This document shows, in pieces, positions 6,168 through 47,531 of a stretch of DNA of 47,621 bases. A model generated the notes under the pieces. The model had not been told where the DNA came from. It saw nothing but the letters and a program-made list of their open reading frames with translations, and did not search any database. The translations under genes and the position numbers were made by a program. Source of the DNA: Sphaeroforma arctica JP610 (taxonomy: Eukaryota); assembly GCF_001186125.1 (NCBI RefSeq), contig NW_014040456.1, positions 91,664 to 139,284 on the forward strand, given 5' to 3'. Position 1 is the first letter of the stretch. Every line of letters begins with the position of its first letter.

Positions 6168-6482
6168 TGTAGAGTTTGAGAGTAGCTTGCAAGTTACGAC
6201 CAAAGGAAACAATAGACTTCTTCTTCTCAAGTGCGAATCTTACAGCTAGACTCGCATTGAGTCTTTATTTGCGTTTAGTATTTTCTACACTAAACTCAAT
6301 ATTTACTAAAGTGTTTCTCTCACACGCGGGAGTCCCGGTATTATCTACTGGTATTCCCGCTATATTTCTGATCACTCTATCATCAGAAATATTGGATCTT
6401 AGATCCAAAACTCGGTATTTGATAATAATGGATTTTGAGTTTAGGATTGGCTTTTCTGATAATCTGGTCCCTGAATGCTACA
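6168..6482 (-). repeat. Family A LTR (3' LTR of copy 1)
   Basis: TG...CA termini (tgtagag...gctaca). Homologous to 23835-24155, 27506-27825, 42921-43248 and 47188-47531. Confidence 0.9.
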
Positions 6483-7832: not shown

Positions 7833-8586
7833 GGTGTAAGATTTGGTCTATCAAGACGATATTAACGCCTTAGAGTAATTAAACGCTTAGGTTAAGTTTA
7901 ATTATTGTGGAATTCGAAGTAAATAAACGAAATGAGTATTTTGGTAGAGTTATGTATGCCTCGTGAAAACAGCAATACTCTGAGGGATTGTGAGGCTGAG
8001 ACATTGCCTATATATAATCCTCTCAGTACTGTTTTCGCCGAAGGGATTTTAGTTAGTGTTTCGTTGTCGCTCTATTAGAAACTATGGTATGTTTCGTTGG
8101 GGCGAATCCGAGAGACTCATAAAAACCTATCTGTAGAAAAAAAGAATAGAAAAAAGAAAAATACTCTTGATGTCCATAGTTAGTGCATTAACCAATAACT
8201 TGCCACTTATCAGAATTGCCGACTTGGCCTTCATCAGACTGGCACATCTGGTTGGCTGAACGGAGGTTAAACTAGGTAACACTAATAGTCCCTAGAAACC
8301 TATATTCGGTTGAGCCATCTCACTACCGAAGTATTCAGATATAAATAGATTTGGAAAGTAAAGATAGTTCTATTAATAGAACTAGACCAAATCTTATGTT
8401 TGGTATTTTACTGGGGCCTTTTAATGGCCTTGTCCAAATATCTGATATGTAAAATGGAAAAGGTATTAATTAATAAAACCGTTAAAAACCATTTAGGAAA
8501 CTTAAGTTCCTTCTACTATAGTGTATGTACTGCTTAAGAGTACGTTTATAACATAGAGTCTAATGTGGAGGCCCGGCTATTACACA
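7833..8586 (-). repeat. Family B 3' LTR
   Basis: Direct repeat of 15668-16436; ends ttacaca, followed on + by ggccccaccc (PPT on minus). Confidence 0.9.
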
Positions 8587-10593: not shown

Positions 10594-11155
10594 GGGACCT
10601 ATACGACATATTATAGTATATCTCCAGGGCGTCTTCAGGACGGCTCGGGCACCCTGATATAGGAAAGTATATACTTCCCTATCTAAATATATTGGCTTGC
10701 ATTGTATCATGCTTATTAATGTATTGATACATGGATATTTACTCCGTAATGGGCAATACAACGTGATGGTAGCTTTGTGTATATGAACATAATTTAGTAA
10801 TTGGGCAATTAACTGCCAAGGTGGATTAGCCCACGCATTATGTTCGGAGAGGTCTAGTTGAAGGGCATCTACTAAAGGATGATTTAAAGTCCTGTAATTC
10901 TTAAGTTGTGCACTATGATGTGCAGCAAACATGTCAACTGTATGTGGCCCAAATATCTTTTGAGCCAGTTCAAACCACTGGGGTTACATTTCCACGCATT
11001 ATGTTCGGAGAGGTCTAGTTGAAGGGCATCTACTAAAGGATGATTTAAAGTCCTGTAATTCTTAAGTTGTGCACTATGATGTGCAGCAAACATGTCAACT
11101 GTATGTGGCCCAAATATCTTTTGAGCCAGTTCAAACCACTGGGGTTACATTTCCA
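10594..11155 (-). pseudogene. DIRS/Dam-like N6-adenine DNA methyltransferase-type domain, family B
   Basis: GPHTVDMFAAHHSAQLKNY...NAWANPPWQLIAQLL...ATITLYCP...TPWRYTIICRIG. Contains a 161-bp tandem duplication (10831-11152). Confidence 0.8.
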
Positions 11156-12754
11156 CCAGTGGCTAGTAACTCACGTATGGATTTATTAAAGTCCGGTACA
11201 AAGCGTGATAACATATCCGGTAAATGGTTATGTATCCCTGGTGGATGTTTGATATCAAAATGAAACTTTGATAGTGTATCATGCCATCGGCTCAGTAATT
11301 GAGAGTCTGGCTTCATTTCCTTCATATATTGAAGGGACTTCTGATCACGCATCAGCGTAAAAGCTGTTCCGTATAAGTAATCGCGGAAGTGTGTTAAAGC
11401 TGCTACTATGGCTAGTAGCTCTTGCTTCACGGTTGGATAATTGAACTGTGATGCATTCATTGCTCGGCTAAAGGATGTATATACCTAGGTTTATTATCTA
11501 TAACCTGGTATAGTACACCTCCGAGTGCTAAGTCTGATGCGTCCGTTGCTATTTCAAAAGGCACGCCATCGACTGGTCCTTGTACAACAGGGGCTTGTTG
11601 GACTGCGTGCTTGAGCGCTTTAAATGCGTCATCACACTCTTTAGTCCACAAGTCTCCTAGTTTGCCTTTATGACATCTTAAGTGTCCAAAGGGTTTAAGA
11701 TAGTCAGCCAAGTGTGGTACTCCATCTGAAAAGAAGTTTACAAACCAACACATGCTGTTCACATCTCTTCCTGTAGTTGGTGTTCGCCAATCTAACAGGT
11801 GTTCCACCTTACCGAGGTAGATTTTAATACCTTCCCCAGATATACGGTAGCCTAAGAGCTGTATTTCGCTCATGGCGAAGTGACATTTCTTCTCGTTAAT
11901 CTTGAAGTTTTGTTCGTTGAGTCTCTGAAGGACTGGCCTGACTAATGCGGCATGTTCGCCCTTGGTCTTAGAAAAGATGACTATATCATCTATATAGACT
12001 TGCATGTTAGGCATGTCTACAAACATTTCCTACATTACTTGGTGGAAGAATGCTGGTAAGGAGTGCAACCCGAAAGGTGCACCTCTGAACCTGTATTGTT
12101 TACCTTTCCAGGTAAAACTAAAGAACTTACGATGGGGTTCATAAATTTGCATTTGATGATACCCCTGTGTAAGGTCTATGGATGTAAACACCGTAGCACC
12201 TTCCATTCGTCTCAGTAACTCGTTTATACGAGGGAGATGGAAACTATGAGTCGGCAATAACTTATTTATTGGACTCAGATCTAGACATACTCTGACTTTC
12301 TTAAATGTTCTGTCAGAGTTGTGTTGATCAACTGCCAATAATTCAAAGTTAACTGGCGTTTGTTGGTATAACCATTTCTCAACTTGTTCTTTAACGACAA
12401 CTTCGTGTCTCCAAGATACATATTTTCTTGAAGGGTATTTGAGCTTAGTAAAGTCTACCTTGGTTAAATCAAGGCTGACATATCCGTCGTTAAAACGGAA
12501 TTTTGCCCAATCTGTGATTTTTATCTTCTTATTTACTAGAATCAGATCCATGATTTTGTCCGCAAAGCCAGGTATTAATGCCTTGACTGTGTCTGACGGG
12601 GGCTTATATGGTTTCAGACAATTATCGTCTGATTGATCCTTTAATGGATCTATGTTATTTGGAAAACCAGTTACAGTTATACTCAGAGTGAGTAAGTCAC
12701 TCATTCCGACTATTAAGTCGTACTTCTGTGACATCTTAACTATCACAGCTTGGG

Positions 12755-15667: not shown

Positions 15668-16436
15668 TGTGTAAGATTCGGTCTATCAAGGCGATATCAA
15701 CGCCTTAGAGTAATTAAACGCTTAGGTTAAGTCAAAGTATCGTGGAATTCGACGTAAATAAACGAAATGAGTCTTTTGGTAAAGTTCGGTATGCCTCGTG
15801 AAAACAGCAATACTCTGAGACATTGTGAGGCTGAGACATTGCCTATATATAATCCTCTCAGTACTGTTTTCGCCGAAGGGATTTTAGTTAGTGTTTCGTT
15901 GTCGCTCTATTAGAAACTATGGTATGTTTCGTTGGGGCGAGTCCGAGAGACTCATAAAGTCCTATCTTTAAAAAAAAAAGAATAGAAAAAAGAAAAGTAC
16001 TCTTGATGTCCATAGTTAGTGCATTAACCAATAACTTGCCACTTATCAAGAATTGCCGACTTAGCCTTCATCAGACTGGCACACCTGGTTGGCTGAATGG
16101 AGGTTAAACTAGGTAGCGCTAATAGTCCCTAGAAACCTATATTCGGTTGAGCCATCTCGCTAACGAAGTATTCAGATATAAATAGATTTGGAAAGTAAAG
16201 ATAGTTCTATTAATAGAACTAGACCAAATCTTATGTTTGGTATTTTACTGGGGCCTTTTAATGGCCTTGTCCAAATATCTAATACGTAAAATGGAAAAGG
16301 TATTAATTAATAAAACCGTTAAAAACCATTTAGGAAACTTAAGTTCCTTGTACTATTAAGAGTACGCTTATAGTTTACGTACTGCTTAAGAGTACATTTA
16401 TAACATAGAGTCTAATGTGGAGGCCCGGCTATTAAA
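15668..16436 (-). repeat. Family B 5' LTR
   Basis: Direct repeat of 7833-8586, begins tgtgtaag; last few bases degenerate. Confidence 0.9.
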
Positions 16437-16889
16437 GTAGCGCTGATTTGTCCATCATTAGACGTAATATGACATACGATGAGTGTACATCAAGCCATGC
16501 TAACACATATATGTGTGTCCTCTGTTGGAATCCAATAGTGGTCCTATGGTGTCCACTTGGACTCTGTTGCCTTGAAAAGCGGCTGTGATTGATTGTAAGG
16601 GATGAAATCCCTTTTGTGTATCTTATTTTTGAGACATGGTATGCATAGGCAAATGAACTTGTGTACATGTTGTTGGATATCAGGCCAATCATGTGCATCT
16701 GCTTGTAACTTGTAGATTGTTTCCTCAGGAGTTTAATGTCCCAAATTGTGGTATTGCTCGATGATGATGACAACACGTGTCTCGTATTCTGTTGCCTGTG
16801 GGGCATCTTCAGAGTGAACTGGTTCTGATGCTGCAACGTGTATGGCAGGTCGGGTTGTTTCCGCGTTGAGATAAACTATGGAGACTTCA

Positions 16890-17263
16890 CTTCTATCTTT
16901 GCGACTAATATGACACCCCATGGGGTCTTGCCACAAGCCTTTTTGCCTTCTTTGAGGAAAATATTGTTTGTGTTTTCCACTAGCATCGAACTTTGGAAAC
17001 CACGTTGCATTGGGGTAGTATGGTACACATATCGTGATGCTGATTGCCTCTTTGCTGACTTTGACAAGGACATCAGGTATGAGTTCCCATGGTTGGTTCG
17101 TCAATGCATTCACTTTCTGGGCTCATTTTTGTTGTAGCGCATTCTGTTCTTTGGTGCAGTATTTATCTGTGTGTGCATTGTGTGCCGATACAAACAGATC
17201 CCCCGTGAATTCCCCAAATCGTCGTTCAGTTTCTTGGTAAAATCTGGGGTGTAGCATTCAGCC
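16890..17263 (-). pseudogene. DIRS/Dam-like methyltransferase-type domain, family A copy 1
   Basis: MLHPRFYQETERRFGEFTGDLFVSAHNAHTDKY...NALTNQPWELIPDVL...ITICVPYYPNATWF...CGKTPWGVILVAKI (frameshifted). Confidence 0.78.
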
Positions 17264-17640
17264 TGTGGCTGATTGTACTCTTGGCTATCATTGTATTGTA
17301 TCATTTGCTTCTTGTAATACCTTTGAAGTTTATTGAAAATGTCTTCATGTAGACGCGACAACATGTCTCCCATCTGATTGACCTTGCCTTGGACATGTAT
17401 GATGGAGAAGTGGTGGTGGAATGTTTTTGCTGTCCATTTGACTAGCATTGGGTGTAACGTCTGTTGACTGTTCATTAGCGTGAGCGCTTTGTGATCGGTC
17501 CACAGTGTTATGTTCCCCCTATAATGTATTCGGAGAAATGCTGCAGGTTGTATACCAATGCTAGTAGCTCTTTAGTATTGTACTTTTGAGAAATAGAGAA
17601 TATCTCTTCTAACTCCATCGATTACTTGAAATAAACATTC

Positions 17641-18247
17641 TTCTATGCTTGTTAGCGTGCGATGTGGGGGAGTATAAGTAAAGTGCAAATGTATCTAAAG
17701 AATGACATTATTCTATGCTTGTTAGCGTGCGATGTGGGGGAGTATAAGTAAAGTGCAAATGTATCTAAAGAATGACATTATTCTATGCTTGTTAGCGTGC
17801 GATGTGGGGGAGTATAAGTAAAGTGCAAATGTGTCTAAAGAATGGTGCGTTCGAATGAATTTATCTATGATCTCACTCTCAGTTATATACTCATGGTGTT
17901 TGTACTAGTGTTCAATCACTTGGGTTGGCCAGGGTTAAAACCCATATGATCAGTATGAGAAACCTTACGCAGATCACTTTAACACTCGGATATATTTTCT
18001 AGAAATAAATATATCATATTATCTGCTACTACACTCAGTCTCGGACCTCGGCTTTCGGCGAGCCGGTGGCCCGTGTTCTATATATAGAAAAATTTGAGAA
18101 GAGGTCTCAAATTACTCTTAGGTTCTCATAGGCTGACCCACCTATACGTATATTAATTTGAGAACAAGTCCCAAACTACTCTCGGGCTGACGACGTAAAT
18201 TGTTGTTAACGTATCTAGAAATACGTCTACTTCTTTAGTCTCTCAAC
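17641..18247 (+). mobile_element. Insertion in family A RNase H: 70-bp tandem repeat x3 plus a putative Copia-like PPT and 3' LTR remnant
   Basis: Splits the RH coding sequence (DASDCG|..LFQVIDG). Repeat units start at 17641, 17711 and 17781, each with GGGGGAG. The segment has a TATA-like tract and ends tctcaac. Confidence 0.5.
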
Positions 18248-21200
18248 GCCGCAGTCACTAGCATCATTCATTATTTGAAACGGTACCCCATCGACAGGGT
18301 ATGCTAGTGCCGCTGAACATGCGATGGCTTCTTTGAGTTCTTCCCACTTCTTTTTGAGTTCCGGAGTCCATAACATGGATATGTTCTGGTTCATTTTTCC
18401 TTTCATAAGATTCTGGAAGTGTTTCTTTGTGTGGGCAAAGTTGGGGACGTGGTCGCGCATGTAATTTGCTAGTCCCACCGTTTTGTGCAGATCTCTCTTT
18501 GTTCTGGGTAGTGGCCAGTCCATCATCCTTTTCTGTTTTTCAGGATCTGCTTTGAGTCCTTGTGTGGTGAGTTTCACACCTAGAATATTGATCACTTTGA
18601 CCGCGAAGGCACACTTGTTGTGGTTGAGTCGGAAGTTTACTCCATTCAGTTGTTTGACTACTTCATACATTCTTCTTCTGTAAGACTCGCAATGACTATG
18701 TCATCTGCATACACTTGCAATCCTTTGATGTCTATGAGCAAGCTTGTCATGACTCTCTGGAACTGTGCTGTGAGTGAGTGTAGTCCAAACGGCGCTGACT
18801 TGAACGAGTATTACGCTCCTCTCTACGAGAATGTGAAAAAGTGTTGGCTTGCTTCGTCTACTAGAAAATGGTGAAACACTCTTGTGATATCTAGCTTAGC
18901 TTCGAGAAGAATTGTGCTCCATGTAGGTTGTGTAGTACTTCCGTTATTTTTGGTAACATAAATTTGTCTTGTTCATATTGATAATTGATCTCACGTAAGT
19001 CTAGGCATGTTCTTACTTTCTTGAGGAGACCTGTATAGTCCTGTTCACCTGTTGATAACAATGGTAGATTCACCGTTATCGGTGTGGTGCGTTTGTATAT
19101 GTGACCATCTGTAAGCCACCTTTGTACGATTTCATCTGTTTGCGGAATGTATATGCTAGGTACAAAATTGACTTTAGCGTGCCTCATTTGTCTGACGTTA
19201 ACTTCATTTGTAGGTACTATGACTGTGGATCCTGGTAGGTTGCAATGTACGTCAGAAGGTATATTCGCATTGGTATCTAGAAGGTCTGTAGGTGACTCTT
19301 TGAATTCTTCTTGTTCATGCTCCGGGTCCTCCTCATGTGGTGTGAGGAGTGATTCCCATTTTGCATCTGTTGGTATAAGTGGATTAATTAATCCTGCTAT
19401 GTATATACCTATGTATGGTAGAATATCCATACAGAGAAATATTGGTGCCTTCTTGTTTTGTAGATCCAATACTTCAAAACACTGAGAGGTTTTCCTATCT
19501 CGATAATTAATGTCACAAACTTCAGTTGATCCTGTGCGTTGAATTCTTGCATCTGTTTGTGCTAGTTGTATATAACCCGGTTGCGCTTTGACATAGATTT
19601 GTAGTTCTGATACTACACTCTTGTCCATGCATGAGCGTTGTGCGCTCGAGTCTACTAATGTATTGTATGTATTGCCATTAATTTGTATGTCAATGTGTAA
19701 ACGTTGGTCTCGTGGTGCGGGAGGTAAGGATAAAGGTTGATAATTTAAATCATTTGCATTTATTAACAACGTTCCTTCATCTGTATATACATTGAGCCTG
19801 TCAGCCAGGTCAATCATGTTCGCTTCCGCCCACCAGTTGTTTTAGTGCTCGTCACCTTCTGTGATGTCTTCTACCTTCCCAGAGGTAATGGACAGTCATG
19901 CTATTGCACATCCTTCTTGGCCCGCTCCTCAGCCTGTTTGGCTTGATTTCCTTTTTTCTTGGGACATTTACTGAACCGATCTGGGGCTGGCAACACCAGA
20001 CAGACAGTAGGGACATATACGCTCTTCACGTGCCCCTCTCTTCTCTTGTGCCTGTCCCACTGGCTTGTTTTGGTTGGGTGCACCGTTGTCCGGTTTATAC
20101 CGTTTGTTAGCAGTGGTAGTGCTATTCTCATCTTGGATGGTTGTCTGTGCGTTTTGACGCTTGTTCTGCACTCGCAACTGTTCCCTCAACATTCGGTCTC
20201 CTTGCATCTTGGATGCCGCTCTTATTTTTGCCTGTCATAATATGAAACTTGGTGTGTTCTATATCTGACAAGTACCCTTCCCTTCCATCAGATTGCTTGT
20301 CTGCTCTGATTAGAGCTCCACCTGTGTTTGTTGTCCGTAGTACATAAGTGATTGGTACCTTAGTACTCTGAGGAGTTGGAAGTGTATGGGTTCCGTGTCT
20401 GAGTTGCGGTAACTCTCCTCTAACATCACCATTGTCTTATGCGCACGCTCTGTGCGCACTTCGACGTTCAGCTTCTTGTTCTGCATGTCATTGAGAAACT
20501 TCTCCAACAGATAGTCTACTGGGTAGGGCATGAGTCTGTCAATAATGATCCTATTGAATTGCTCAGGTTCCTTGATGCGCTTAGTCGTATGTTTCTCAGA
20601 ATCTCTTAAGTTATTGGGTACTGACTTGGTCTTCTCCGTTGCATCAGTGGAATCTAATAGGTTTCTCGTTGGTGCTGGGTACTGACACAGCGGCATGAAC
20701 TTTGCTACGAATAGATCTCTACATTGCGTAGTGAACTCTATGATGTCTGCACAATTTTCCATTCTAAAGTAACTATCTTTAGGTAGCTTGGAAAATTCTG
20801 AAGTCTTTAGTAGTTTTGCAAGAGGTGGTTCATTTATCTGGTCGCCTAAGCGTGAACGCATGAGCTCTAACTCACTAATGTATTGACTTTTTGTATGAGA
20901 TCATCTTCATTATCGTCACCACAATCGTTGATAGCTATTTCATATCGTCTTCTGAGCTCCACATCCACGAGTGGCATGCGTCGTTTTGGCTGTTGGTCAT
21001 GAATCCCTACCCTCATCTTGTGTAGCGTCGGTATAGGCACCGGTACTGTTTGTTCCAATTTGGATACAACCCTACTAACTAGGATGTAAAAATCCTAAAA
21101 ACGCTTGTCTATTTCTAGACGCATTACTGAGGCTAGTATGGGAACTCCTCCAGGTGTAGATTGGTTTGACCCACTACCCGGGTTTGGTTCCCCTTCTGAA

Positions 21201-23834
21201 ATATCCCCTGCACCATCTGTACCCATACCTTCTTCTTTATATGATGGTGTGTGGCTATTGCAAGTTATTAGTGAAGACTCTTGTTGCTTTCTGTGCGAAT
21301 GTGCGCTTCACCCCCCTTATCTTGTCTAATAGCTTGTATAAAATAAATAAAATATGAAGTGTTTTTACTTACTATTGTCGTCTTATTTCTTTGCTGCACT
21401 TCCGTGTGAAGTGTTTACCGTATTGTGTGGTACGGTAGCTTATTACCTTGTTCTCTGTATTTATGAGGGTGTAAACAGTGTTTGTTAGTCAAGCTTATTC
21501 CGTCATATGAGGAATTACTTATGATTGTTCCGTCATATGAGAAATTGGTTTCTCATGTGATCTTAATGAGATGTTCGGTCTTTGTGACGTCACCGTGAAA
21601 GTTCGGCCCTTTCGACGTCACCCCTGAATGTTCGGTCCACTGAGGATGTGTGGTCTTGTACCGAAATTTCTATGTATGTGTGTGGTATCTGTGATGTTTG
21701 TCCTTATTGACTTTACCAGAAATGTTCTCTGTTTTACCACACTTACTTGATGTTCACGTTACTTTTGTGTTTATTACTTGTATGATGTCCAGTCCTGGAC
21801 CAATTCGGTGTGCTTCTCAGGCTTCATTGTTGATCACTGTCTTGCGAATTTAGTCCGATCTCCTGTGTATATTGTGTGTGTTCGTACAACGAGATTTCGT
21901 TGACTCTGGATGCTCATCACCTTGGTGTCACTTCACCTTCTATTTTAGTTTTTATGAACTGTAAATGCGTCTAGTGTTGTGTGTGGAATGGTTTGTTCCT
22001 GCTCTCTGAATTGTGTTATTGTGATCTTTCTGTGATTCGATCGATCTTGGACGTGCTGTTGGTGTGTGTGTGGAATAAATTATTCCCTTGCCTCACCCAT
22101 ATCTGTCTTCATCTACTTCTAACTTGTTGAGGTAGTTTCGATCACTTCTGACGTTGTGTTTGTACTAGGTGCTTCCTATGTACTATTTGGAATGGATCAT
22201 TCCTGTGTACCATTTAGGCGAGCGTGTCACGAAATGAAATGTTCCTACGCAATATCAGATGCTAGAGATTTGTGTCCTCAATTTCCTCGTGTATTTATGA
22301 ATGATGTATTTGCTATTGTGTGTCACAATACTGTGCTTTCTTCTTCGTGATCTCATGAACTGGTTCGGTGCTATGTCACTTGTTTGACATTTATATCTAG
22401 TATGAAATGCTTATTTGTGGAATCTTGGTATCTGATGTCTTGTTCTGTCTTATAGCGCCTTGAAGTGTATAGTGTACTATCGCATGGCTTGTTTTTTTAT
22501 AGTGTTTTATGAATACTTTACCCGCTGTTACTTATTGTGATTCAATCTTTGAAACTCCTTAATTAAATACACACTGACATTTGTTGTGATTCAATCTTTG
22601 AAACTCCTCAACCATTTGATTAATACTGTGCGCATCTGATTGTTCTTGAACTTTCTTGTTCAATGATCGAGTGTGTGTTATTCTATTGAGTAATTATTTT
22701 CTTCTCCTTAATTGAGAAAACTTGCTTCGTACATGTAATTAACTTGTCTTTATTGAGAATACTTCGTTGATGGAAGTTGCTTCATATAATTGACTTGTCA
22801 ACTATGTGTCCTGATTGATCAGAAGCGATAATCTCCAATCTTGATATGTTGTCTATCTCTCTTCTGACCACTATCTATTCTTAAGCCAGTACAACTACTT
22901 AAATTAACTAGTTTTTGCTTTGTTACCCTTCGTCATTCCATGTTTGGACACTGTTGTGACAAGTGCATGTCTTTTCTAATGCAAGTAGATGCCTGAAACT
23001 CAGGCCTTAGATTTTGAGGTAGACGTTGGTTTCTTACTCATCTGTGTGTGAGAGAGAGCTAAGTTGATTCCTGTTACTATGTTCTGTCGTTCTACGTTAG
23101 ACTTTTGAATGTAGTATATTTCTTGTACTTATTATTTCGGTTTTACTGGCGATTTTGCTCTTATCAGTACTGAATGTCTTATACTTACTTAGGTTGCGAT
23201 CGAGTGTTGTGCTAACATTGAATACTACAGGCTGCTTGCGCGTGTTGTTTTTGTCTTTTAGTTAATAATTCACTGCTAGTTGTGTGCACAAATTCTCACA
23301 ACTCGCTGTGTATAATATCATTGCATGTATTGTTATACTAGTTGTATATCTCGTGGTTTTTGTGCATTGATGTGCAGTGTCCCTAAGTTCAGTATATTTT
23401 CTTGTTCGAAAACTGCCTAAAAATCCCCAACATTGATTAATTAATCTATGTGACACTACTACATAATTTTACTCCCTGAGATACTTATTTGTTCACAATA
23501 AAGCTTATAACACCTTGTCACATGTCCAGCTTACTTCTAGAACACGTTCTATTTACATTGGTTGTTGTGCCAAGGTTCTTCTATCGCTTGAGTGGTTCCC
23601 CTCTTCTTCTTTCTGTCTTCCGCAATCTCAGGATATCGACTTATTTTTCGACTGTGGACCCTCTTTCTTATTCAGGTCCCCTTTGCTTCTCTTCGGCTTC
23701 TCTCTTTTATAATAAAGTTTATATCACAAACAGAGTTTCTTTATGACAGGAGTGTATTCTGCATCATCTCTCACACCTATTTCAGTGTGTTGGGATTCTT
23801 GTTGACTTATCTAAGTAAGAATATTGTCAAAAAA

Positions 23835-24155
23835 TGTAGAGTACGGAGAGTGGCTGAAAGGTACGAGTCAAAGGATACAATAGACCTCTTCTCAAGTACA
23901 GTCATCTCAGCTAGGAAAGTCTCTAGTCTGAGAGAACCGGACTGAGACTTTATTTGTGTTTTTACTAGACTCAGGATTTACTCGAGTGTTTCTCTCACAC
24001 GCGGGGTCCCGGTATAGCTTACCGGGTTTACCGCTAATATTTCTGATGACTAATATCAGAAACATTCCATTCCTACTTCCAAAACTCAGTATTTGATTAT
24101 TATGGGATTTGGGATTTGGATTGGCTTTTTGATAGTCTAGTCCCTAGTTGCTACA
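23835..24155 (-). repeat. Family A LTR (5' LTR of copy 1)
   Basis: TG...CA termini, homologous to the other family A LTRs, adjacent to family A leader sequence. Confidence 0.9.
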
Positions 24156-27505: not shown

Positions 27506-27825
27506 TGTAGCATCTAGGGACCAGACTATCAAAAAGCCAATCCAAAACCCAAAACCCAGAATAATCAAATACTGAGTTTTGGAATTAGGATTTAAATATG
27601 TCTGATATTAGAGTCATCAGAAGTATTAGCGGTAGAACCGGTAAGCTATACCGGGACTCCCGCGTGAGAGAGAAACACAAAAGTAGATCCTGAGTCTAGT
27701 GAAAACACAAATAAAGACTCAGTTCCTCAGGTTAGGGACTTTTCCTAGCTGAGATAACCGTACTTGAGAAGAGGTCCATTGTATTCCATTGTCTCGTACC
27801 TTTCAGGAGCTCTCCATACTCTACA
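27506..27825 (+). repeat. Family A 5' LTR of copy 2
   Basis: tgtagca...ctctaca, internal AATAAA, reverse complement of the other family A LTRs. Confidence 0.9.
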
Positions 27826-28235
27826 TTTTTAACAATATCCATACCTATATAAGTCAACAAGAATCCTAACACACTGTAATAGGTTTAAGAAAAGAAGCAG
27901 AAGACACTCCTGACATAAAGAATTTCTAATTGTGAAATAGACTATTACAGAAGGAAGAGGCCGAAGAGAAGCGAGGAGATCTTGAAGAAGAAAGAAGGTC
28001 CACAACGGTAGGACAAGAGGACACCTTGGAACTCAGAGGAATAGGAGAAAGAAGAATAAGACCTCGGCACAACGTCTGAGGTAAATAGAAGTGTTCCAGA
28101 AGTAAGCTGGACATTTGACGAGATGTGATAAGCTTTATTGTGCACAAAGAAGTGTCTCTTTGAGTGCAAAAATTAGAAAAGTGTCACGTTGATTAATTCA
28201 TCAATGGTGGAGATTTTTAGGCCATTTTCGAACAA

Positions 28236-30785: not shown

Positions 30786-32484
30786 AGTAACAGGTACCAA
30801 CGTAACTATCAAGGACCCATAGAGATGAGTACGAAACTAACGTACACATCAAAATCTCAAGCCTAAATTTCAGCCATTTACTTGCATTAGAAAGGCAGGA
30901 ACACGTTAAGAGTGTCCACACACAGAATGAACAAGAGTATCAAGCATAACTAAGCATTCTAGATAATCATACTTGCCAATTAATCATTCTAAGCAATCAT
31001 ACTCGCTTAAGAATGGGTGGTACCAATAAATGAGATCTGTAAGATCCTAAAACAAAAAAATACTCACTTTAGGTAGAAAAGTACACATACTTGACAACTC
31101 AATTACAAGCAAGAGGCAATCTCTAACAAAGTATTCTCAATAAATGAGAAGAAAACAAACACCCAAGTCCAGAATATACATACGATTTTTGAACAAGGAA
31201 GTCCAAGAACAATCAGATGCGCATAGCATTAATCAAATCATTGAGGAGGGTTCAGAGATCGAATAACAACAAAGGGCCATGGGTAATTTATTAGGGAGTT
31301 GCAACAATAAGAGTTAAAACAAATAATAGTGATCAATCGATTCATAAACAAGACAAAGACAAGCAGTAAAAAATTACACAATTCGCGTCAAACTATCATA
31401 AGGAGGCACAAGACATTAGATACAGAGAATTTACATACAAATAATATCATTGTCAAACAAGTTACATAACACATAACCAAACCAAGCGATAATAACAATG
31501 AGAGCACAGTATGGTAAGGCATAATAGCAAGTACAACACTCATATCAAAAAGGAATTTAGGTCGCAAATCTCGCGAATCTGATCAGGCACAGGAATAATC
31601 CATTCCATGGCCTGATCACATAAATGGTGCACAAGAATAATCCATTCCACATAGCACACAAGAAGCATACAGTGCACACACACCGTCAGAAGTGACTAAC
31701 AATAAGTTGGAAATAGACAAAGACAGCCATTGATGGACAAGGGAACAATTCAAACCCACTCACATCATAAAGCAAGTCTAAGATCGATCAAATCACGAAA
31801 AGATCACAAGACATAACTCAGTGATAGGAACAAACCATTCCATACACAACACTACGCATTACAGTTCATCAAAACTGAAATAGCAACAGAGGTGACACAA
31901 AGTGATGAGAATCTAAATTCAAGAAATCTCGTTGTACACACACAACACACACAGGAGATTGAACTAAATTTGCAAGACAGTGATTGACAATGAAAGCCGG
32001 AAAGCACAGCAGGCTGGTCTAGCACTAGACATCACACAAGCAGCGCACACAAAACGAAAAGTACGCATCAAGTGGGTATAGTACAACCGAGTACAGTTCT
32101 GGTATAGTCAATAAGGACAAATATAACAGATCCCACATACATACATAAGCAGTTCGGTACAAGACCACAAATGTCCAGTGGACCGAACATCAAGAGGTGA
32201 AGTCAAAAGGACCGAACTTCCCCGGTGACATCACTAGGACCGAACTTCTACATGTGACGTCACTAGGAATGAACATCTCATTAAGATCACTTGAGAAAAT
32301 AGTTTCTCACATGACGGAATAAACACTAGTGACAATAAGTTCTCACGTGACGGAATAAGCACAAGTGACGTCACACGTGACGGAATAAGCTTGACTAACA
32401 AACACTGTTTTCACCCCTCATAAACACAGGGGACCAAGCAACAAGCTACCGAGCCATACAGCAAGGTCAACACTTCCCGCGGAA

Positions 32485-35400
32485 GTGCAGCAAAGCAACA
32501 GCAATATAATTGTAAGTAAAACAAATCAAAATTTCATTTATTATGACTTATTACTAAAGACGGGGGATGAAGCGCGCGCTTTCACACAAAACATAACCAG
32601 AGTCTTTATTAATAATCCACTAACACCCACACACCAATGCAGGCTTCTGGAAATGCCAACAGCAACCAGAACAAACGTGTACTGTGGGGGGGGGGAAGGG
32701 AATGCAGGCGCGGATGACGTGGAAGTCTGTCCAATGGAAGGGACAAGCCCAGGCAATAGTTCGGGCCAACCTACACCGGCGGGTGTACCCATTGTAGCGA
32801 CAGCAATGCGTCTATAAGTAAACAAGAATATCTGTCAAGGCAATCATGTTCTGATGAGTCGGTTTGTGTCCAAATTGGAAATACAGCACCAGTGCCTATA
32901 CCGACTCTACACAAGATGAGGGTAGGCATACATGACCAACAGCCAGAGTGCCGAATGCCACTAGTGGATGCGGAGCTCAGACGACGATATGACCAAGCAA
33001 TCAACGATTGTGGTGGTGATGAGGACGACAAACTTATTCAAATCAGTCTGTACGTTAGTGAGCTAGAGCTCATGTGTTCTCGTTTAGGCGATCAGATAAA
33101 CGAACCATCTCTCAAGAAATTACTCAAGACTTCGGAATTTCTCAAGATGCCTAAAGATAGTTTCTTTAGAATGGAAAATTGCGAAGATATCATAGAGTTC
33201 ACTACACAGTGTAGTAATATATTCTTAGCTACGTCAATCCCATTGTGTCAGTGTTCAGCAATCCCATTGATGCAACGGAGAAAACCAAATCAGTACTCAA
33301 TAACTTAAGAGATTCTGAGACACAAAACTAGGCACTTCAATGATCCTGAGCAGTTCAATAGAATCATTATTGATCGACTCAGATCGCACCCAGGAGACTA
33401 TCTATCGGATAATTTTCTCAATGACATGCAGAATAAGAAGATGAACGTCGAAGTGCGCACAGAACGTGTGCACAAGACAATGGCGATGTTAGAGGAGCGT
33501 TACCGCAACTCAGACAAGGAGCCCGTACACTTCCAATTCCTCAAAGTCCAGAGGTACATAGCACTGAAGTACTATGGATTGCAATCAGTTGTGGACATCC
33601 TAATCAAAGGAGACAAGCAACCGGATGGAAGTGAAGGACACTTGTCTGACATAGAACATACCAATTTTCATACTATGACTGAGACACACATAAGAACGGC
33701 GGCTATGACACAAGCAGAGCGTATGTTGCGGGATCAGGCGCGAGCAGCAAACAAGCGCAACAGCGCACAGACGAACAGGCAAGTGGTGGATAACTCTACA
33801 AACGCTAACAAACGGCACACGCCAGATGATGGTGCACACAACCAGAACAAGCAAGGGGGGGCATACAAAGAAAAAGAAACGAGCACGTGAAGAGCGTGCA
33901 TGCCCCTATTGTCAGAAAATGCCAACAGCGAATGTCCTGAGAAGAAAGCAAATCAAGCCAAGGAGGCTGAGCAGCGAGCCAAGAAAGTTGTGCAGATAGC
34001 AAGACTGTCCATTATATCTGGCAAGGTGGAAGACATCACAGAAGGGGATGAGCACTGAAGACACTGGTGAGCGGAAGCAAACATGATTGACCTGGCTGAC
34101 AGACTCAATGTATTTACAAATGAAGAAACGTTGTTAATAAATGCAAATGATAGAAATTATCAACCTTTATCTTTACTTCCCGCACCATGAGACCAACGGT
34201 TACACATTGACATACAAATCAATGGCAATACATACAATGTACTAGCAGACTCGGGTGCACAACGCTGATGCATGAACAAAAGTGTAGTATCAGAACTATA
34301 TATGTTAGTGCGCAACCGGGGTACATACAACTAGCACAAATGGATGCAAGAATTCAACGCACTGGATCAACAGAAGTTTGTGACTTTAACTATGGAGGTA
34401 GGAAGACCTCTCAGTAATTTGAAGTATTGGACTTACCAGACAAAAAGACACCAATGCTTCTAGGTATGGACATTCTACCATAAATAGGTATATACATAAC
34501 AGGGTTAATCAATCCACTTATACCAACAGATGCAAAATGGGAATTGCTCCTCACACCACATGGAGAGGACCCAGAGCATGAACAAGAAGGTTTCAGAGAG
34601 TCACTTACAGACCTTCTGGATACCAATGCGAATATATCTCCTGATGCTCATTGCAATCTACCAGGTTCCACAGTCACTGTACCTGCAAATGAAATCAACG
34701 TCAGACAAATGAGGAACGCTAAAGTCAACTTTGTTCCGCACAAATACATTCCGCAAACGGATGAGAATGTGCAACGATGGCTTAAAGATGGCCACATATA
34801 CAAACGCGATACGCCCACAACGGTGAACCTACCGTTCTTATCAACAGGTGAACATGACCAAACAGGTCGCCTCAAAAAAGTAAGAACATGTCTAGCCATA
34901 TGCGAGATCAGTTATCAGTATGAACAAGACAAATTCGTGTTACCAAAAATAAAGGAAGTGTTACACAACCTACAAGGGGCACAGTTCTTTTCAAAGCTAG
35001 GTCTGGAGAATTTTACCATTTCCTAGTAAACGAAGCAAGCCAACACTTTTTTACATTCTCGTGGAGAAGAGCGCAGTACTCATTCGAGTCCGCGCCGTTT
35101 GGACCACACTCACTCACAGCACAATTCCAGAGAGCCATGGCGAATCTGCTCATATCTATCAGAGGAGTGCAAGTGTGTGTAGATGGCATATTCATTGCGA
35201 GTCTTACCGAAGAAGTACACCGCAAGTCAATTCGTGAAGTAATCAAGTGACTGAATAGCAACATTCTTGAGGTGAAAGTCACCACACAGGGACTCAAAGC
35301 AGACCCTGAGAAACAGAAAAGAATGATGGACTGGCCACTGCCGAAAACAAAAAGAGATCTGTACAAGGCAATGGGACTAGCAAATTGCATGCGAGACCAT

Positions 35401-36758
35401 GTCCCCAACTTTGCCCACACAACGAAACACATTCGGGACCTAATGAAAGGAAAAATAAACCAGAACATATCCATGTTGTGGACACCGAAACTTATAAAGA
35501 AGTGGGAAGAACTCAAAAAAGCCATCGCCTGTTCAGCGACGCTAGCATACCCTGTTGATGGGGTACCGTTTCAAATTATGAACGATGCTAGTGATTATGG
35601 CATAGGAAGGTACTTATTTCAAGTCATCGATGGAGTTAGAAGAGACTTTCTCTAGTCCTCAAAAGGCTTGAATCCAGCTGGCACAAATACCAAAGAGCTA
35701 CTAGCACTGGTATACAGCCTGGAACACTTCTCTGAATTAATCAAAGGGGGGGACATAACACTGTGGACAGATCACAAAGCGCTCACGCAAATGAACAGTC
35801 AACAGACGTTACACCTAATGCTAGCCAAATGGATAGCAAAAACGTTCTACCACCATTTCTCCATCATACATGTCCCAGGCAAGGACAACCAGATGGCAGA
35901 TATGTTGTCACGTCTCCTTGAAGATACTTTTAGTACTAAAGAGTCAAAAGTATTACAACAGGCGAATGAGGCAACTCATAATAGCCAAGAGTACACCACC
36001 TTGGAAACGAACATACCCATAACCATATCGGATATAGACTGGATGTTACATCCCAGATTCTATCAAGAAGCGGAACGAAGGTTTGGGGAGCTCACAGTAG
36101 ATCTGTTTGCATCAGCACACAATGCGCACACAGATAAATACTACACCAAAGAACATATTGCGATACAACAAAAGTGGGCGCAGGAAGTGAATGCATGGAC
36201 GAACCCATCATGGGAACTCATACCTGATGTCCTTGACAAAGTCATTGAGGAGGCAACCAGCATCACAATATGTGTACCATATTACCCCAATGCCTCGTGG
36301 TTTTCAAAGTTCTTGTCTTTACTAGAAGAAGACCCTATGCTAGTAGAAAACACAAACAATACGTTCCTCAAAGAGGGCAAGAAGGCTTGTGGCAAGACCC
36401 CATGGAGTGTCACATTAGTCGCAAGGATAGGAGCTAAGTTTCCATACTTTGACTCAACGTGGGAACAACCTGCTATACACGTTGCAGCGTCAGAACCAGT
36501 TCACTATGAAGACGCACCACAGGAAACAAAATATGAGAAACGTGTCGATCTCATCGAGCAATACCACAACTTAGGACATTACACTCCTGCGGAAACAGTA
36601 CACAAGTTGCAAGCAGATGGACATGATTGGGCTGATATCCAACAACATGTACACAAGTTCAATGACGGATGTATACCAGGTCTAAAAAAACCCCCCTCAA
36701 AAAGGTATTTCACCCTTTACAATCAATTACAGCCGCATATCCAAGCGACAGAGTCCAA
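32485..36758 (+). pseudogene. Family A copy 2 gag-pol (gag-PR-RT-RH-MT-IN N-terminus), disrupted
   Basis: ORF fragments 32892-33890 (gag), LADSGA (~34245, PR), 34544-35655 (RT/RH). ORF 35668-36855 runs uninterrupted from RH (WTDHKAL...NQMADMLSR) through MT to the IN H-X3-H motif. Confidence 0.9.
36037..36432 (+). pseudogene. DIRS/Dam-like methyltransferase-type domain, family A copy 2 (open frame)
   Basis: DWMLHPRFYQEAERRFGELTVDLFASAHNAHTDKYY...NAWTNPSWELIPDVLDKVIEEATSITICVPYYPNASWF...GKTPWSVTLVARIG. Confidence 0.85.
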
Positions 36759-37082: not shown

Positions 37083-37329
37083 ACAACCCCAAACTGAAAC
37101 ACAATTTGTGGGCCAGCTTTAAGAATTCGAAAGAGTATCCTGAGCAGGCTAGTGTGCTGGCATTTAACCTCAGAGAGCTAGAGGGCTCGGTTATTTATTC
37201 ACCACTCGAGCTGGTGACTAAACATTAGGTACATGTAACTACCCTAATATATGTATATCTATAAACAACTGGGTGTTATTTACAACTGGTCACTGCGACA
37301 TTTCCTGGCTCGTGTCTGTGTATCCTTAT

Positions 37330-37470
37330 GATAAGCTACAATGTCATTAGCATCGTCAAAAGCATCGGCTGTTTCCCATGTTGGCACTCCCTCACGCCAA
37401 CGTACAAGGTATTCCAGCTTACCCGTATCATCGTTCGTCCGATGTTTGATAATGTAACGGAATGCTGCGC
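37330..37470 (-). pseudogene. Integrase C-terminal chromodomain, family C
   Basis: FRYIIKHRTNDDTGKLEYLVRWREGVPTWETADAFDDANDIVAY fits the chromodomain pattern (I..HR...YLVRW.G..TWE). Confidence 0.8.
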
Positions 37471-37635
37471 CACCTTCATGTCACAGAGTGTGGTGGACCA
37501 ACCGTAGTAACTCTACGCGAACCGGCTTCCCTTTAAAATCCTGGGGGGCGGCTTCGTTAACTTGTCCGTATATGTCGTAGTGATTTTATGCAACGTAGGC
37601 AAAATCGTATCATGCAGCTGGTCCAGCCGTTGTGC

Positions 37636-42486: not shown

Positions 42487-43248
42487 ATCCTTACACTGAA
42501 CAATTTTTTCACTGAGACACGATACTTACACTTGAGTGTTTAAGAACACCACGCTTGAACACGATAGGGTTATAAACACGATATGGTTACCTTGCTAGTT
42601 CTTCTGCCTGGTATCTTTGATTTCTCGGCTGACTTCTTATTGGTTTCTTTGTGCCCAATTTCCTGCTAACATCCAGTGGTTGAATTTCTTCTTTTCTCTT
42701 CCCTACATCTGTGGTCAGAGTCTTCTCGGTTTCCTTGTTGGTGCCTCTTCTTGTCTGGTTATCTTCTCGTCTCTCTTCTTAATTATTGAGACACCTTGTA
42801 GGATATTAAAAAAGTTTTAAATTTATAGGAAACACCTTGTGGGGTACTTCACTCGTTCTTTCATTTTGTTTGTAGAGTGCAAGTTATTTGACTTATCTAA
42901 GTAAGGATATTGTTAGAAAATGTAGAGTATGGTAGCTGAAAAGTACGAGCCAATGAATACAATAGACCTCGTCTCAAGTACGGTTATCTCAGCTAGGGAA
43001 AGTCCGTAGTCTGAGAGAACCGAACAGAGTCTTTATTTGTGTTTTATATTTCACAAGACTCAGGATTTTACTCGAGTGTTTCTATCACACGCGGACTCCC
43101 GGTTTTGCTTACCGGTTCTACCGCTAATTGTTTCTGATGACTCTAATATCAGAAATATTCCAATCCTAATTCCAAAACTCAATATTTGATGATTCTGGGT
43201 TTTGGGAGTTAGATTGGCTTTTTGTTATTCTGGTCCTTATATGCTACA
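42487..43248 (-). mobile_element. Family A-type 5' LTR (42921-43248) with truncated leader
   Basis: TG...CA LTR; adjacent gacttatctaagtaaggatattgttagaaaa matches the sequence next to the LTR at 23835. Confidence 0.82.
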
Positions 43249-44632
43249 CTAGCGCTATTGACTACGAAGTGTTCTTCGTGGTCATCACAGAAGGGAATTG
43301 TGCGCTGTACTTGTACAGCTGCAGTATTTCGACCACAATCCCAAAAAGAGAGCTCGCAGCGACGGAGTAGTAAGGCTGCACAATAGTTTATCGGTTGCCT
43401 CATCCAGAAGTGCAGGTGCGACCTCCAAAACTTCGGACCCTACAATTATCAAAGATGGGATGGGCACACTTGCTAGAAATCGATTATTTGTCTTCAAACG
43501 TAAGTTAGTAGGTGAGCAAGCATCTATGCCATACTCAGTCCTTTCGCCTTGGTCTTCTATTTTTGTTTTTGTGTGTGTGCATAATCTGGTATCCTTCTTC
43601 TCCGCTGCCGACGTGGCTTTTCCTGGGTCTTTTAATTTCTTTGTTAGACTCTCCAGCTACTTCTTATACTCCCTTTGTTAACGTACTACCGGAGCAGCAT
43701 CACTAACAGTAGCTGTATTGGGCTTCTTGCTTTGCACTTCTTTAGAATTGTGCGTGTTTGTAATATTGGTAGGTTCTCTCAGGGCTATATTTCGAGTCTT
43801 TTCTTCGTGCTTACGTGCGGCAACTTTTTTTTTTGCTGCAATGTCATCGGGTGGTCTTCGAGGCTTGTACGTCCTTTTGACATGGACGGACGCATCGGAC
43901 TGCTTGTCTGCGTGTGTTAATTTGTGTGCGCTACGTTCTTCATTAAGCGGCTGGGTCGCTTCGATGGTTGACGGGCCCACACTACTTACAATCATAGTAA
44001 CGGTTCTATTCGTATCACGCCATCGATTCACTGCAGGACTTGTTGTTGCGGGTCAGGTTTTGCATTCATCAATGTCTCTTACTTTTGTTGTCTCAACTGA
44101 TATGCTTAAAAGGTCTGCGATCACAGCTATCTTAACCACGATGAATGTAGTGGTGCTCGGGTAGAAAAGGACATACTAACGTATAAATACGTGCATACTA
44201 TCAGTTTTATACTTGTTTAAAAAATATCGGTATATGGTGCAATCGCACATACATCATCGTCAGAGATGCTCTCACTTTGAAAGACAATAGAAAACTCAAT
44301 ACTTGTCCGATCCAGGGGATAAATACCATAAACGCATTTTGTTGATTGTAATAAAAATAGTAGCTCGCACTTTTCTTTGTACATATTGCCAAAAGGGGGG
44401 AGGAAGGGTGGGGTTGAAAATTTTGAGCGGTGCTAACTTGCTTTTGGTTTTGGGCACTACCCTGGGTTGGAATCAACAACATAGTTTTTTTATAGTTCAA
44501 CTAAGTCTATCAAACTTCTTTATATCTGAATAAACAAACAAAACATATATAGATATAGAAAGTACTTACATTTGTTCGACACATAAATACAATAAATACA
44601 CTCTTGGGGAACATAACTTATATTGCCCGTTA

Positions 44633-47187
44633 GGCTATGGGCCTTTCTTAGGCATTTGATACTCAATTAATCATGAACGACAACACTGCAACTATCGCAG
44701 TCCCCGCAGCCGCTGGATGCTTCTATCGTTCAGTGATGACAACCACGATGTCGGCTCGACGATATTCGCGTTGCCTTTTCCACTGCCAAACAAAATGAAC
44801 TACCAGTTCTAGAATTTGTCCAAGATGGACAACCACAGACCCCCCCCTCGGGTCAAACCCCCATCGTGTACCTGCCCGCACATGTTCACTTCCACACAAC
44901 CCGATTCCGTACTACCGCTACTGAAGCTGGCACCTATGCATAAGCTCGCCAGATTCTCTTACGATCTGCCTTACTCACTCGACCTCGATGAAATGATATC
45001 TGATCTATGGACACTTTTGCAAATACCGCGCAATTTGTATTTCCAAAAATTGGCTACCGTTGCACTACATATCAAGTTTGCTCATTTAGAGACATTCAAG
45101 GTGTGATCCAGGACGACGAGAACATGTGCACATGGGCAAATCGTTGTCTCAAATCGAAACGTACTGCCGCACACCAGGATAATTGTGTATCTTCTGTATT
45201 TATACCAGATGCTTTCCTTTTTGGCCTCGACCAAGCTGCTCAGGATCAAGCTCGCAAATTCCTTGTCACTAATACTTGCACTAATATCTCACCACTCTAC
45301 ATTTGCGAGTGGATTGAGACATGGCGGCAAACCGACCCGCACGCTAGCAACGTCGCTTTTCTCTCATTCGTCCGTCATCCAACTCGCAACAACCGGCCGC
45401 ACACGTCCAATTCAGACGTGCTCAAGAGACTAGATGATCTCGCGATCACACTGGTTACCACGTAATCCGCCCCCTTGGTTCGTCTGTATGTCTGCTTGAA
45501 TACCACCCACTCTGACAGCGACTGCCCTTCCGGATGCGATTGTTGTGAAAGTTCTGTTCACCGCAATGTATCATGCGATGCCGGTTCCTTAACCTACAAT
45601 TTATGCTTCATCAATGGACATTCTGCTAAAGTCTGCTCAAAACGCGTCGCAAACAAATCCGCTTCCAACTATTACGAAATAATCGCTCAATTTCTTTACG
45701 TACTACCTCCACTGCCATAGTACATCCACATGACCCGCTTCTTATCGACGATGGGGCCACAGTTAATTATCTACACTCAACTGCCCGATATTTACTTCGT
45801 GATGTTGAAACCAGCCATTCCCACTACTTCTCGCTGATGATTCTCTCACCCACGTCACCGAACGAGGTATATTCCCAGGTTTAGGTTTGACCTACCTCAG
45901 CCCTTCACTATCGCAGTAAATGGTCTTCCAAAACAGACTCCAGGACAATTGATATCGACTAGAGATCCCTGATAATCGCCGAATATGTCATATTCATCAT
46001 TCTGACCCCTCAGTATCCCTGCCACTCGCCAAGGGAGGGTACAGCATTACATACGAGCGGCTCGAAATCTCGCAAGTCTGTCATTTTCTCCGCCGTCCCT
46101 CAAATCATTCCGTCTGACCGACAATGACGCTGAACCCACAGATTCTGACACCGAATTTTACACGGAAAATAGCGCTGTTGCTGAACATTCTGCTAATTCT
46201 ATTCCCCAACTGTTGGTGTTGACAAAGAAGACTGAATGCTAAACAGGAATCATTGGCGATCGGCCACGACCCACAACGACTTTGAACCGAGCATCGACAT
46301 TTATACATAACCTACCAGTTCACAGTAACCCCGGTATGTTGCGAGGGTGGAGAAATAAATGATTTTCGGAAGGTAAATTTAATTACGGAGAAATGCTACA
46401 ATGGCAACTCCAGATGGACTGATATCAATGGTCTGATTCGCCTCAACGTCTCTATCGGCTCCACTATTGCCATCTGTGTGCCACTCCGCCTCTGTGCAAA
46501 GTGGTGGCCCCTCTTCATTTCTCGCATTCAAAGTTCGCCGTACATTATTCTGAATACTAATAAGACATTACACCAATATGACACCACCGCTGTCGATCAC
46601 CCTACTTGGAGACATACGTCCTAGTGGCCAAATTGAGACCCTGACATCCTCTCATTGCTCCCAAAACTGCTCTTTAATTAGCAATTGAGTTTATAAATGC
46701 CAACCCCAAATTCCCAAAACATTGCCAAGTGTGTCTTAAAAGAAAACTCAAGCGCAAGGCTGTTGCTCATCATACCTTCAACACCGTATATGGTCCGGCC
46801 GAGTAATTTCATATTGATTTGCAAGGCCCCATGCCTGCCGATCGTCATGATAACAAGTACGCACTCAAAAAGATCGGTGATGGCACGAAATGCGGCCTCC
46901 ACAATATTTTGCCGAACAAACATAATGTTACTAACGACGTCAAGGCATTTTTGGTCCAGTTCCCCTCCCACTACAAACCACGTCGGCTCATCGGATAATG
47001 TTTTCCAGAGTGAACCTACACGCGCCATGCTGCTCGAACGAAATATAGATCTGCATCGTACATCGACACACACACTACAGCTCAGTAGTAAAGTCGAGCG
47101 TGCCCATGGCACCTTGAATCAGCACACACGCACATTGCTATTGAACTCTAAAGCAGCCGCTACCACTTTGGAGCCGGGATAGAGCAT
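44633..47187 (+). mobile_element. Ty1/Copia-like retrotransposon, 5' part (PBS-gag-PR-MT-IN), decayed and cut by a family A LTR
   Basis: GGCTATGGGCC at 44633 resembles the copia tRNA-iMet-half PBS GGTTATGGGCCC. Cys/His knuckles at ~45490-45640, protease LLIDDGAT at ~45740, integrase CQVCLKRKLKRK...FHIDLQGP...KY and T.QLSSKVERAHGTL...RTLLLNS. No RT between PR and IN. Confidence 0.72.
46250..46640 (+). pseudogene. Degenerate DIRS/Dam-like methyltransferase-type domain in the Copia-like element
   Basis: Manual translation FEPSIDIYT*PTSSQ*P ... GNSRWTDINGLIRLNVSIGSTIAICVPLRLCAKWWPLFISRIQSSPYIILNTNKTL...PTWRHT/LVAKL aligns motif by motif with the MT of families A, B and C. Confidence 0.6.
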
Positions 47188-47531
47188 TTGTAGAGTATAG
47201 AGAGTAGCTGAAAAGACACAACTAAACGATACAATATACCTCTTCTCAAGTACGGCTATATCAGCTAGAAAAAGTCCTTAGGCTGAGATAACCGAACTGA
47301 GTCTTTATTTGTGTTTTTTGATACACTAAACTCAGGTTTTACTTGAGTGTTTCTCTCACACGCGGAGTCCTGGTATAGGTTGCCGGCTCTACCGCTATTA
47401 TTTCTGATGACTCCTGATGACTCTCATATCAGGAATATTTGAATCCCGATTCCACAACTCAATATTTGATGATTCTGAGTTTTAGGGATTTGAATTGACT
47501 TTTTTGTTGTTGTTGATAATCTGGCCCCTAG
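47188..47531 (-). repeat. Family A-type LTR interrupting the Copia-like integrase
   Basis: Begins tgtagag, homologous to the other family A LTRs, right end degenerate. Confidence 0.82.

Follow-up and report, generated by a model that had tools for sequence, protein, structure and literature searches.

A probable Copia-side retrotransposon remnant with a Dam-like methyltransferase directly before its integrase in Sphaeroforma arctica

Has the Dam-like methyltransferase (MT) that Gypsy-like LTR elements of ichthyosporeans carry also been borne by an element of the Ty1/Copia superfamily? The question is raised by positions 44633-47187 of a 47,621-nt stretch of the Sphaeroforma arctica genome (the window, meaning the whole stretch analysed), whose surroundings are dense with nested, decayed retroelements. 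An ichthyosporean DAM-LTR lineage that includes S. arctica has been described by Fernandez-Moreno et al. (2026, bioRxiv 10.64898/2026.05.21.726589), who describe a transfer of Dam from DIRS elements into Ty3/Gypsy-like elements. We conclude that 44633-47187 is probably what remains of an LTR retrotransposon, now dead and truncated, that has an integrase of Ty1/Copia affinity and, directly before it, a decayed Dam-like MT. With one decayed copy as the whole basis for a Copia-Dam reading, we consider the element, on balance, a Copia variant of the DAM-LTRs.

The recognizable parts of the element follow one another on the same strand with no reverse transcriptase (RT) between them, and every domain of the copy shows decay:

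44633-44643, + strand: primer-binding site (PBS) for half tRNA-iMet, 10 of 11 bases
44673-45720, + strand: decayed gag in several frames; first ATG at 44673, longest open stretch 45004-45465
45733-46075, + strand: probable aspartic protease remnant, marginal, in three frames; Asp in the catalytic position at 45750
46076-46232, + strand: acidic linker between the protease segment and the MT
46233-46635, + strand: Dam-like N6-adenine MT remnant; solid over 46406-46618, N-terminal half frameshifted and stopped
46636-47182, + strand: integrase remnant of Copia type; His 46645, CxxC 46723, Asp 46816, Asp 46994, Glu 47096
47189-47504, + strand: high-copy dispersed repeat that takes the place of the element's remainder, cut at about 47188

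An assembly chimera was ruled out by a single contig that covers 44200-47257 without a mismatch to it in runs X14 and X5; two contigs cover it in X11. From 47189 onward, summed contig depth, which is not equivalent to copy number, leaps from ~124 to ~39,500, and the repeat that begins there has four further long copies and one short copy in the window at 68-80% identity. Up to the window end, neither an RT nor an RNase H nor a 3' LTR of the element was found, and a comparison with Dam-Gypsy polyproteins gave no match to an RT or RNase H of the element; the recovery of other copies and of a downstream Copia RT, which the preliminary description had suggested, yielded no intact copy and no such RT. 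Because the 3' end of the element is lost, paired LTRs are not to be expected, and the 1.4 kb that precede the PBS (43250-44640) occur only once in the window. The pair 42921-43223 and 47189-47504 was rejected as the element's LTRs: its members are 80% identical, no nearer to each other than to other window copies, and lie 1.4 kb from the PBS. The dispersed repeat itself is non-coding, 300-360 bases long, and occurs at 6168-6482, 23802-24155, 27506-27857, 42888-43248 and 47189-47504; contig depth indicates that it is very abundant in the genome. Pfam searches of 10 open stretches and 10 further readings of the element returned nothing at the cut-off.

The sequence at 46406-46618 is a genuine remnant of a Dam-like (PF05869-type) MT and covers its C-terminal half. 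With the MT of Gypsy element B as tblastn query, this segment was found at E 6.3e-7, compared with E 0.45 for the next non-MT match in the window, and an eight-row MT profile built without the copy itself scored it at 25.8 bits (i-E 3.2e-9). The profile match to the A, B and C MTs on which the preliminary description had staked its call was thus far above chance: the best of 1000 shuffles of the region reached 5.7, with any domain reported in 925. A frameshift-tolerant aligner gave scores of 52.8 with a mixed profile, 56.2 with a Gypsy-only profile and 24.7 with a DIRS-only profile, the last of which is independent of window sequences, and none of 150 shuffles was as high in any of the three. 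Aligned end to end, the MT profile spans 46233-46635 with a score of 55.2 that none of 300 shuffles equalled. Taken alone, the N-terminal half is marginal, with shuffles as high in 46 of 300 cases (mixed profile), 9 of 300 (DIRS-only) and 117 of 500 (local mode). Of the motif-by-motif match that had been proposed for 46250-46640, the part from NSRW to LVAKL was therefore borne out, and the N-terminal half stayed marginal; since that half scores weakly, IDIY in the place of VDLF is plausible by position only. The domain ends near 46635 with LVAKL, beyond a frameshift. Contrary to the statement that the segment lies outside the open reading frame track, part of it sits in a stop-to-stop frame at 46286-46624. 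The catalytic NPPW is replaced by NSRW, so this copy is without the Asn-Pro-Pro triplet that serves as a criterion for DAM-LTRs, and the Pfam family PF05869 itself misses the decayed domain.

The obvious comparison is with the Gypsy elements of the same window, which have the order RT-RNase H-Dam-integrase and MTs that PF05869 detects (40.7 bits in B, 22 in A). Over 71 ungapped residues the remnant is 28, 28 and 32% identical to the MTs of A, B and C, which are 31-48% identical among themselves. Codon positions 1, 2 and 3 agree with those of B and C at ~0.45, 0.6 and 0.3, third positions being near saturation. From this low identity and the pattern of codon-position agreement we infer that the remnant represents an old MT lineage of its own, and that it was not recently derived from an adjacent element.

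These neighbours have features of their own. For the MT of a Gypsy element at about 36 kb, the best match is SARC_00333 of S. arctica (84% identity); two intact 1288-residue polyproteins, each comprising protease, RVT_1, RNase H, Dam and integrase, match it as well. Inverted copies of one Dam-Gypsy family lie at 16400-22700 (- strand) and 31100-36700 (+ strand), 71-89% alike in the listed arms, and both have lost NPPW, with NQPW and NPSW in its place. Dam-Gypsy C ends in a chromodomain (PF00385) at 37304-37480 on the - strand (26.5 bits, cut-off 25.1), which is weak in the intact relative P0002 (E 0.015); the ichthyosporean DAM-LTR lineage is described as being without chromodomains in the text of 10.64898/2026.05.21.726589. 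The MT of element A holds an exact 161-base tandem duplication at 10831-11156, which may be real or an assembly artefact. Direct repeats at 7834-8582 and 15669-16434, 94-99% identical and ~7.8 kb apart, are likely the LTRs of Dam-Gypsy A, and no tRNA-type PBS was obvious beside the 5' LTR copy.

Several comparisons place the remnant with Gypsy-borne Dam domains. In pairwise comparison among 141 MT domains, its five best matches were all Gypsy-borne (47-37 bits), the best DIRS match reaching 30, and a profile search gave 28.0 bits with Gypsy-only rows versus 3.5 with DIRS-only rows. In the MT tree the remnant joins seven Gypsy Dam rows against 23 DIRS rows with support of 100/98. The tree's outgroup comprised 25 non-Gypsy rows (11 picked, 10 of these as best scorers to the copy, and 14 random), two of which were dropped for a missing anchor motif; its DIRS rows came from 150 profile matches that follow a single DIRS protein, because the profile contained a whole DIRS polymerase row, and were not selected from Ichthyosporea. 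The remnant thus groups with Dam domains carried by Gypsy elements, in the window and among their relatives, and not with those of DIRS. Whether it is nested within the Gypsy MTs, as had been asked of it, or sister to them stands at 65/65, a bootstrap value that is not quite settled; the grouping with Gypsy MTs was upheld, and because nesting and sisterhood are so placed, the Gypsy-to-Copia direction is only inferred. For the same reason we considered whether the MT was captured independently, from ichthyosporean DIRS or another source with no Gypsy-to-Copia step. The choice of DIRS rows and the derivation of ichthyosporean DAM-LTRs from a DIRS lineage given in the text of bioRxiv 10.64898/2026.05.21.726589 leave room for such a history, which the gap between the Gypsy-only and DIRS-only profiles and the ungapped 71-residue alignment with Gypsy MTs, C-terminal tail included, make very improbable.

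If the MT has Gypsy kin, what is the element that carries it? The first indication lies at its 5' end. Ten of 11 bases at 44633-44643, 40 bases ahead of the first ATG, are antisense to the tRNA-iMet anticodon arm, the probe having been taken from the text of PMC5648532 and not from the host's own tRNA (no tRNA genes were found in the window). When the 400 bases upstream were shuffled 3000 times, seven shuffles gave a match of this grade; one more occurs in the window, at 1023, so the copia-type PBS reported at the outset held up. The second match lies inside a 473-codon open frame (742-2163, + strand) for which Pfam gave nothing at E 1. Among the Copia reference loci, ten carry the motif in a looser form, with 12 occurrences in all; the Gypsy loci, too short for a fair control, carry none. 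In plants, according to the part of PMC6317226 that treats them, half-tRNA priming has been found only in Copia lineages.

Gag and protease add less to the classification. The gag knuckles that had been seen are indeed present: one exact CCHC knuckle at 45535-45576, the sole one in the six frames of the window, is flanked by degenerate ones at 45493-45525 and 45595-45636. The zf-CCHC_4 match (E 0.018) falls under the cut-off, and a Copia gag profile was equalled by two of 100 shuffles, over the knuckle part only. The protease named in the preliminary description is marginal. Three settings were tried, one of which, end-to-end alignment to a Copia profile, gave 12 of 300 shuffles as high (101 of 300 with the Gypsy profile); local alignment, with 62 of 300 shuffles as high, or 34 of 400 with looser penalties, did no better than chance. 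The acidic linker that follows shows, over 46111-46179, a faint similarity to the segment joining RNase H and MT in Dam-Gypsy polyproteins (16.0 bits, 11 of 200 shuffles as high).

The integrase is more informative. It carries three stops and one frameshift near 46990 and retains the DDE-type motifs HIDLQGP, SDN and VER; the Copia signature first read from HIDLQGP and VER was corroborated by a score of 54.4 against a Copia profile, which none of 100 shuffles equalled. With X at the stops and the frameshift, the translation scored 55.4 bits on a 19-row Copia profile, compared with 27.6 on 13 Gypsy rows, 38.7 when four local Dam-Gypsy rows were added to these, and 14.7 on the four local rows alone. 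In a leave-out control all 19 Copia and all 17 Gypsy rows were placed correctly, with margins larger than that of the decayed copy. The top eight pairwise matches were all Copia. A first tree placed the element on the Copia side with support of 99/99; of 1000 bootstrap trees, 987 kept it out of the Gypsy clade and nine joined it to local Dam-Gypsy integrases. In a second tree with three Bel/Pao rows added, Copia and the element formed one group (91/99). A Bel/Pao identity was rejected, with -1.5 bits on the three-row profile and a position outside the Bel clade.

References for these comparisons were taken from contigs of eukaryotic origin filed under prokaryote assemblies: 85 loci with a Copia RT motif, 30 Gypsy and 7 Bel/Pao loci, of which 19, 13 and 3, respectively, were kept as full integrase segments, with no Gmr1-type Gypsy among them. 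The motifs used as Copia labels (WHxRLGH, HxDxxGP, LYGLKQ and the primer motif) were checked against these loci, and all eight Copia-motif loci examined for RVT_2 were positive. Eukaryotic Copia, Gypsy and Bel/Pao contigs were in fact present inside many prokaryote assemblies (L048-L169).

Could the integrase nonetheless have been misplaced by long-branch effects, the element being an internally deleted Dam-Gypsy that lost RT and RNase H, or a Gmr1-like Gypsy? It forms the longest end branch (2.18) of the first tree, the second drew a long-branch warning, and AU tests fail to reject a Gypsy grouping (p 0.298) or a place in the local Dam-Gypsy clade (p 0.178). The RT is unseen, the protease is unclassified in local mode, the reference set is without Gmr1, and an MT before an integrase is the Dam-Gypsy order. 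We nevertheless regard a Gypsy identity as improbable, given the profile margin (55.4 versus 14.7-38.7), the nine bootstrap trees in 1000 that join the integrase to local Dam-Gypsy, the uniformly Copia top pairwise matches, the half-tRNA-Met PBS, and a spacing between MT and CxxC that is unlike that of Dam-Gypsy elements. By profiles, trees and pairwise matches, and notwithstanding the AU values, the integrase falls with Copia, which is the outcome that the phylogenetic check proposed earlier had anticipated.

The spacing of the domains shows where the MT was accommodated. From the protease Asp to the integrase CxxC the element has 324 codons, versus 92-243 (median ~170, mostly 163-188) in 18 of 25 Copia references; the excess of ~155 codons is about one MT domain. 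From His to Cys the zinc finger has 26 codons, inside the Copia range of 21-40. From the last Trp of the MT to CxxC there are 39 codons, versus 88, 89, 89, 92, 111 and, in the decayed A, 200 in six Dam-Gypsy elements. The last MT strand adjoins the zinc finger, with ~3 codons to the zinc-finger His. The N-terminal part of the finger is marginal (25 of 300 shuffles as high), and its first His, present in all 21 references that cover the column, is unrecognizable in the element, which suggests that the integrase may have been damaged where the MT joins it. Two readings fit the missing His: a tight natural fusion that later decayed, or a one-off junction that did harm when it formed.

The second of these readings leads to an alternative, namely that an ordinary Copia element gained a piece of Dam-Gypsy MT by recombination, or by nested insertion and deletion, and died as a chimera that never belonged to a replicating MT-bearing family. 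Besides the lost His, the heavy nesting of elements in the window, the weak likeness of 46111-46179 to a Gypsy RNase H-MT linker and, by contig depth, the single-copy state of the locus at high identity would fit such an event. So would the lack of intact relatives in protein, viral-contig and metagenome-contig searches. Word-indexed searches for relatives among longer proteins gave none among 11 candidates for the MT piece and 34 for the N-terminal integrase piece. The ESM Atlas yielded no usable match for the MT piece or gag, and a PDB sequence search with the C-terminal integrase piece gave none. Exact look-up of three open frames in a sequence collection found none of them. Among viral contigs, none of 36 stretches matched the MT piece, 46 PBS matches were all without retroelement motifs or MT, and the Copia RT motif was absent; among metagenome contigs, one of 439 matched gag, over 15 residues that we take as chance. 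On the other side, the insert is about one domain long, lies on the same strand and between domains, is without flanking Gypsy RT, RNase H, integrase or LTR, and is distant from all Gypsy MTs of the window (28-32% amino acid identity). Extra contigs in X14, X11 and X5, at ≥80% identity, cover ~70 bases of the MT (around 46500) as well as several gag stretches, and over those 70 bases no MT of the window exceeds 56% identity. These contigs are a hint of a diverged sister copy, with separate loci for MT and gag also possible. Weighing both sides, we think a one-off chimera unlikely and a Copia variant of the DAM-LTRs the better account of the locus.

Capture of Dam by Gypsy-like LTR elements is known from the 2026 preprint, and a Copia-side carrier is likely what is new here. 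Like the published DAM-LTRs, the element has a Dam-like domain in the pol of an integrase-encoding LTR-type element, and the nearest kin of this domain are Dam domains of Gypsy elements in the window. Unlike those Ty3/Gypsy-like elements, it has an integrase that falls with Copia and an MT behind the protease region, with no RT/RNase H before the MT and thus none of the RVT_1/Gypsy organization, and its route of acquisition would be from LTR element to LTR element. As described in the text of 10.64898/2026.05.21.726589, the preprint's RT tree uses RVT_1 only, its screen needed a Pfam-detectable Dam, and 46% of Dam sequences are orphans; because of that screen and the RVT_1 classification, a Copia carrier may have been missed or left among the orphans. 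The words 'copia', 'Ty1' and 'Pseudoviridae' do not occur in the main text of 10.64898/2026.05.21.726589. No Copia-Dam element was found in the literature searched, and the preprint supplements, which lay outside that search, may list some.

Other known systems resemble the element in part. The MT of DIRS (Dam, PF05869; PMC3783388) belongs to the same Pfam family as the window's Gypsy copies, and a DIRS-only profile detects the remnant; DIRS elements, in the account of PMC3783388, use a tyrosine recombinase and have neither protease nor DDE integrase, unlike the element with its DDE integrase and tRNA PBS. The half-tRNA-Met Copia elements treated in PMC6317226 (Osser, Bryco and Gymco-II of plants) share with it the PBS, the gag knuckle and a protease-like segment followed by integrase, and differ from it in lacking the ~155 extra codons with the MT and in having the RT and RNase H that are missing here. 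MT matches were absent from all 85 Copia-motif reference loci. Some Copia polyproteins among the references carry a domain between integrase and RT, a chromodomain in L099 and a Tudor-like domain in L067. Cytosine MTs borne by retrotransposons (SymbioDIRS-Dnmt3, SymbioLINE-Dnmt and KnitGypsy-Dnmt3) are described in PMC5890265, in whose text Symbiodinium Copia is without any DNMT domain; these too are MTs captured into retroelement polyproteins, the enzyme in their case being an unrelated C5 type.

We propose that the Dam domain of a Copia family would have come from a Gypsy element of the same lineage that already carried Dam. Retroelement RNAs present together in one host would have recombined, or switched template, so that the domain entered the linker between protease and integrase. 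It is likely, judging by the MT and integrase affinities, that the MT domain passed between retrotransposon superfamilies, as the preliminary description had suggested; a move between superfamilies fits the MT tree, and that it took place in this genome is no more than a possibility, given the 28-32% identity and the near saturation of third codon positions. MT and integrase would remain one protein, travelling on new cDNA, because the ~3 codons at their junction leave little room for a protease site. The preliminary description's argument, that an MT lying just before the integrase in both superfamilies may work with the integrase or pre-integration complex, is a fair one for this genome. By analogy with the published DAM-LTR model, in which Dam marks replication intermediates and host AMT1 then holds insertions open, the MT would mark cDNA, or the hybrid of RNA and DNA, with 6mA, and AMT1 would keep the insertion in open chromatin. 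That model is itself proposed and not proven in 10.64898/2026.05.21.726589, where eukaryotic Dam domains expressed in E. coli added no 6mA. A 6mA-marking role is the best function available for the MT by this analogy and is unproven. The present copy performs none of these steps: all its domains are broken, and it has NSRW for NPPW.

The weight of the finding is limited by its source, one broken copy from which the RT is missing. We suggest tentatively, and at somewhat less than even strength, that ichthyosporeans once had, and may still have, a Ty1/Copia family with an N-terminal Dam on its integrase, acquired from Gypsy DAM-LTRs. If so, this would be a third retroelement group with Dam and the first hand-over of Dam from one LTR superfamily to another, and the existence of a Copia carrier would mean that the benefit of Dam is independent of Gypsy architecture. 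The tight junction of MT and integrase would indicate the cDNA-integrase complex as the site of action, and the fusion would be a natural methylase-integrase that marks new cDNA at integration.
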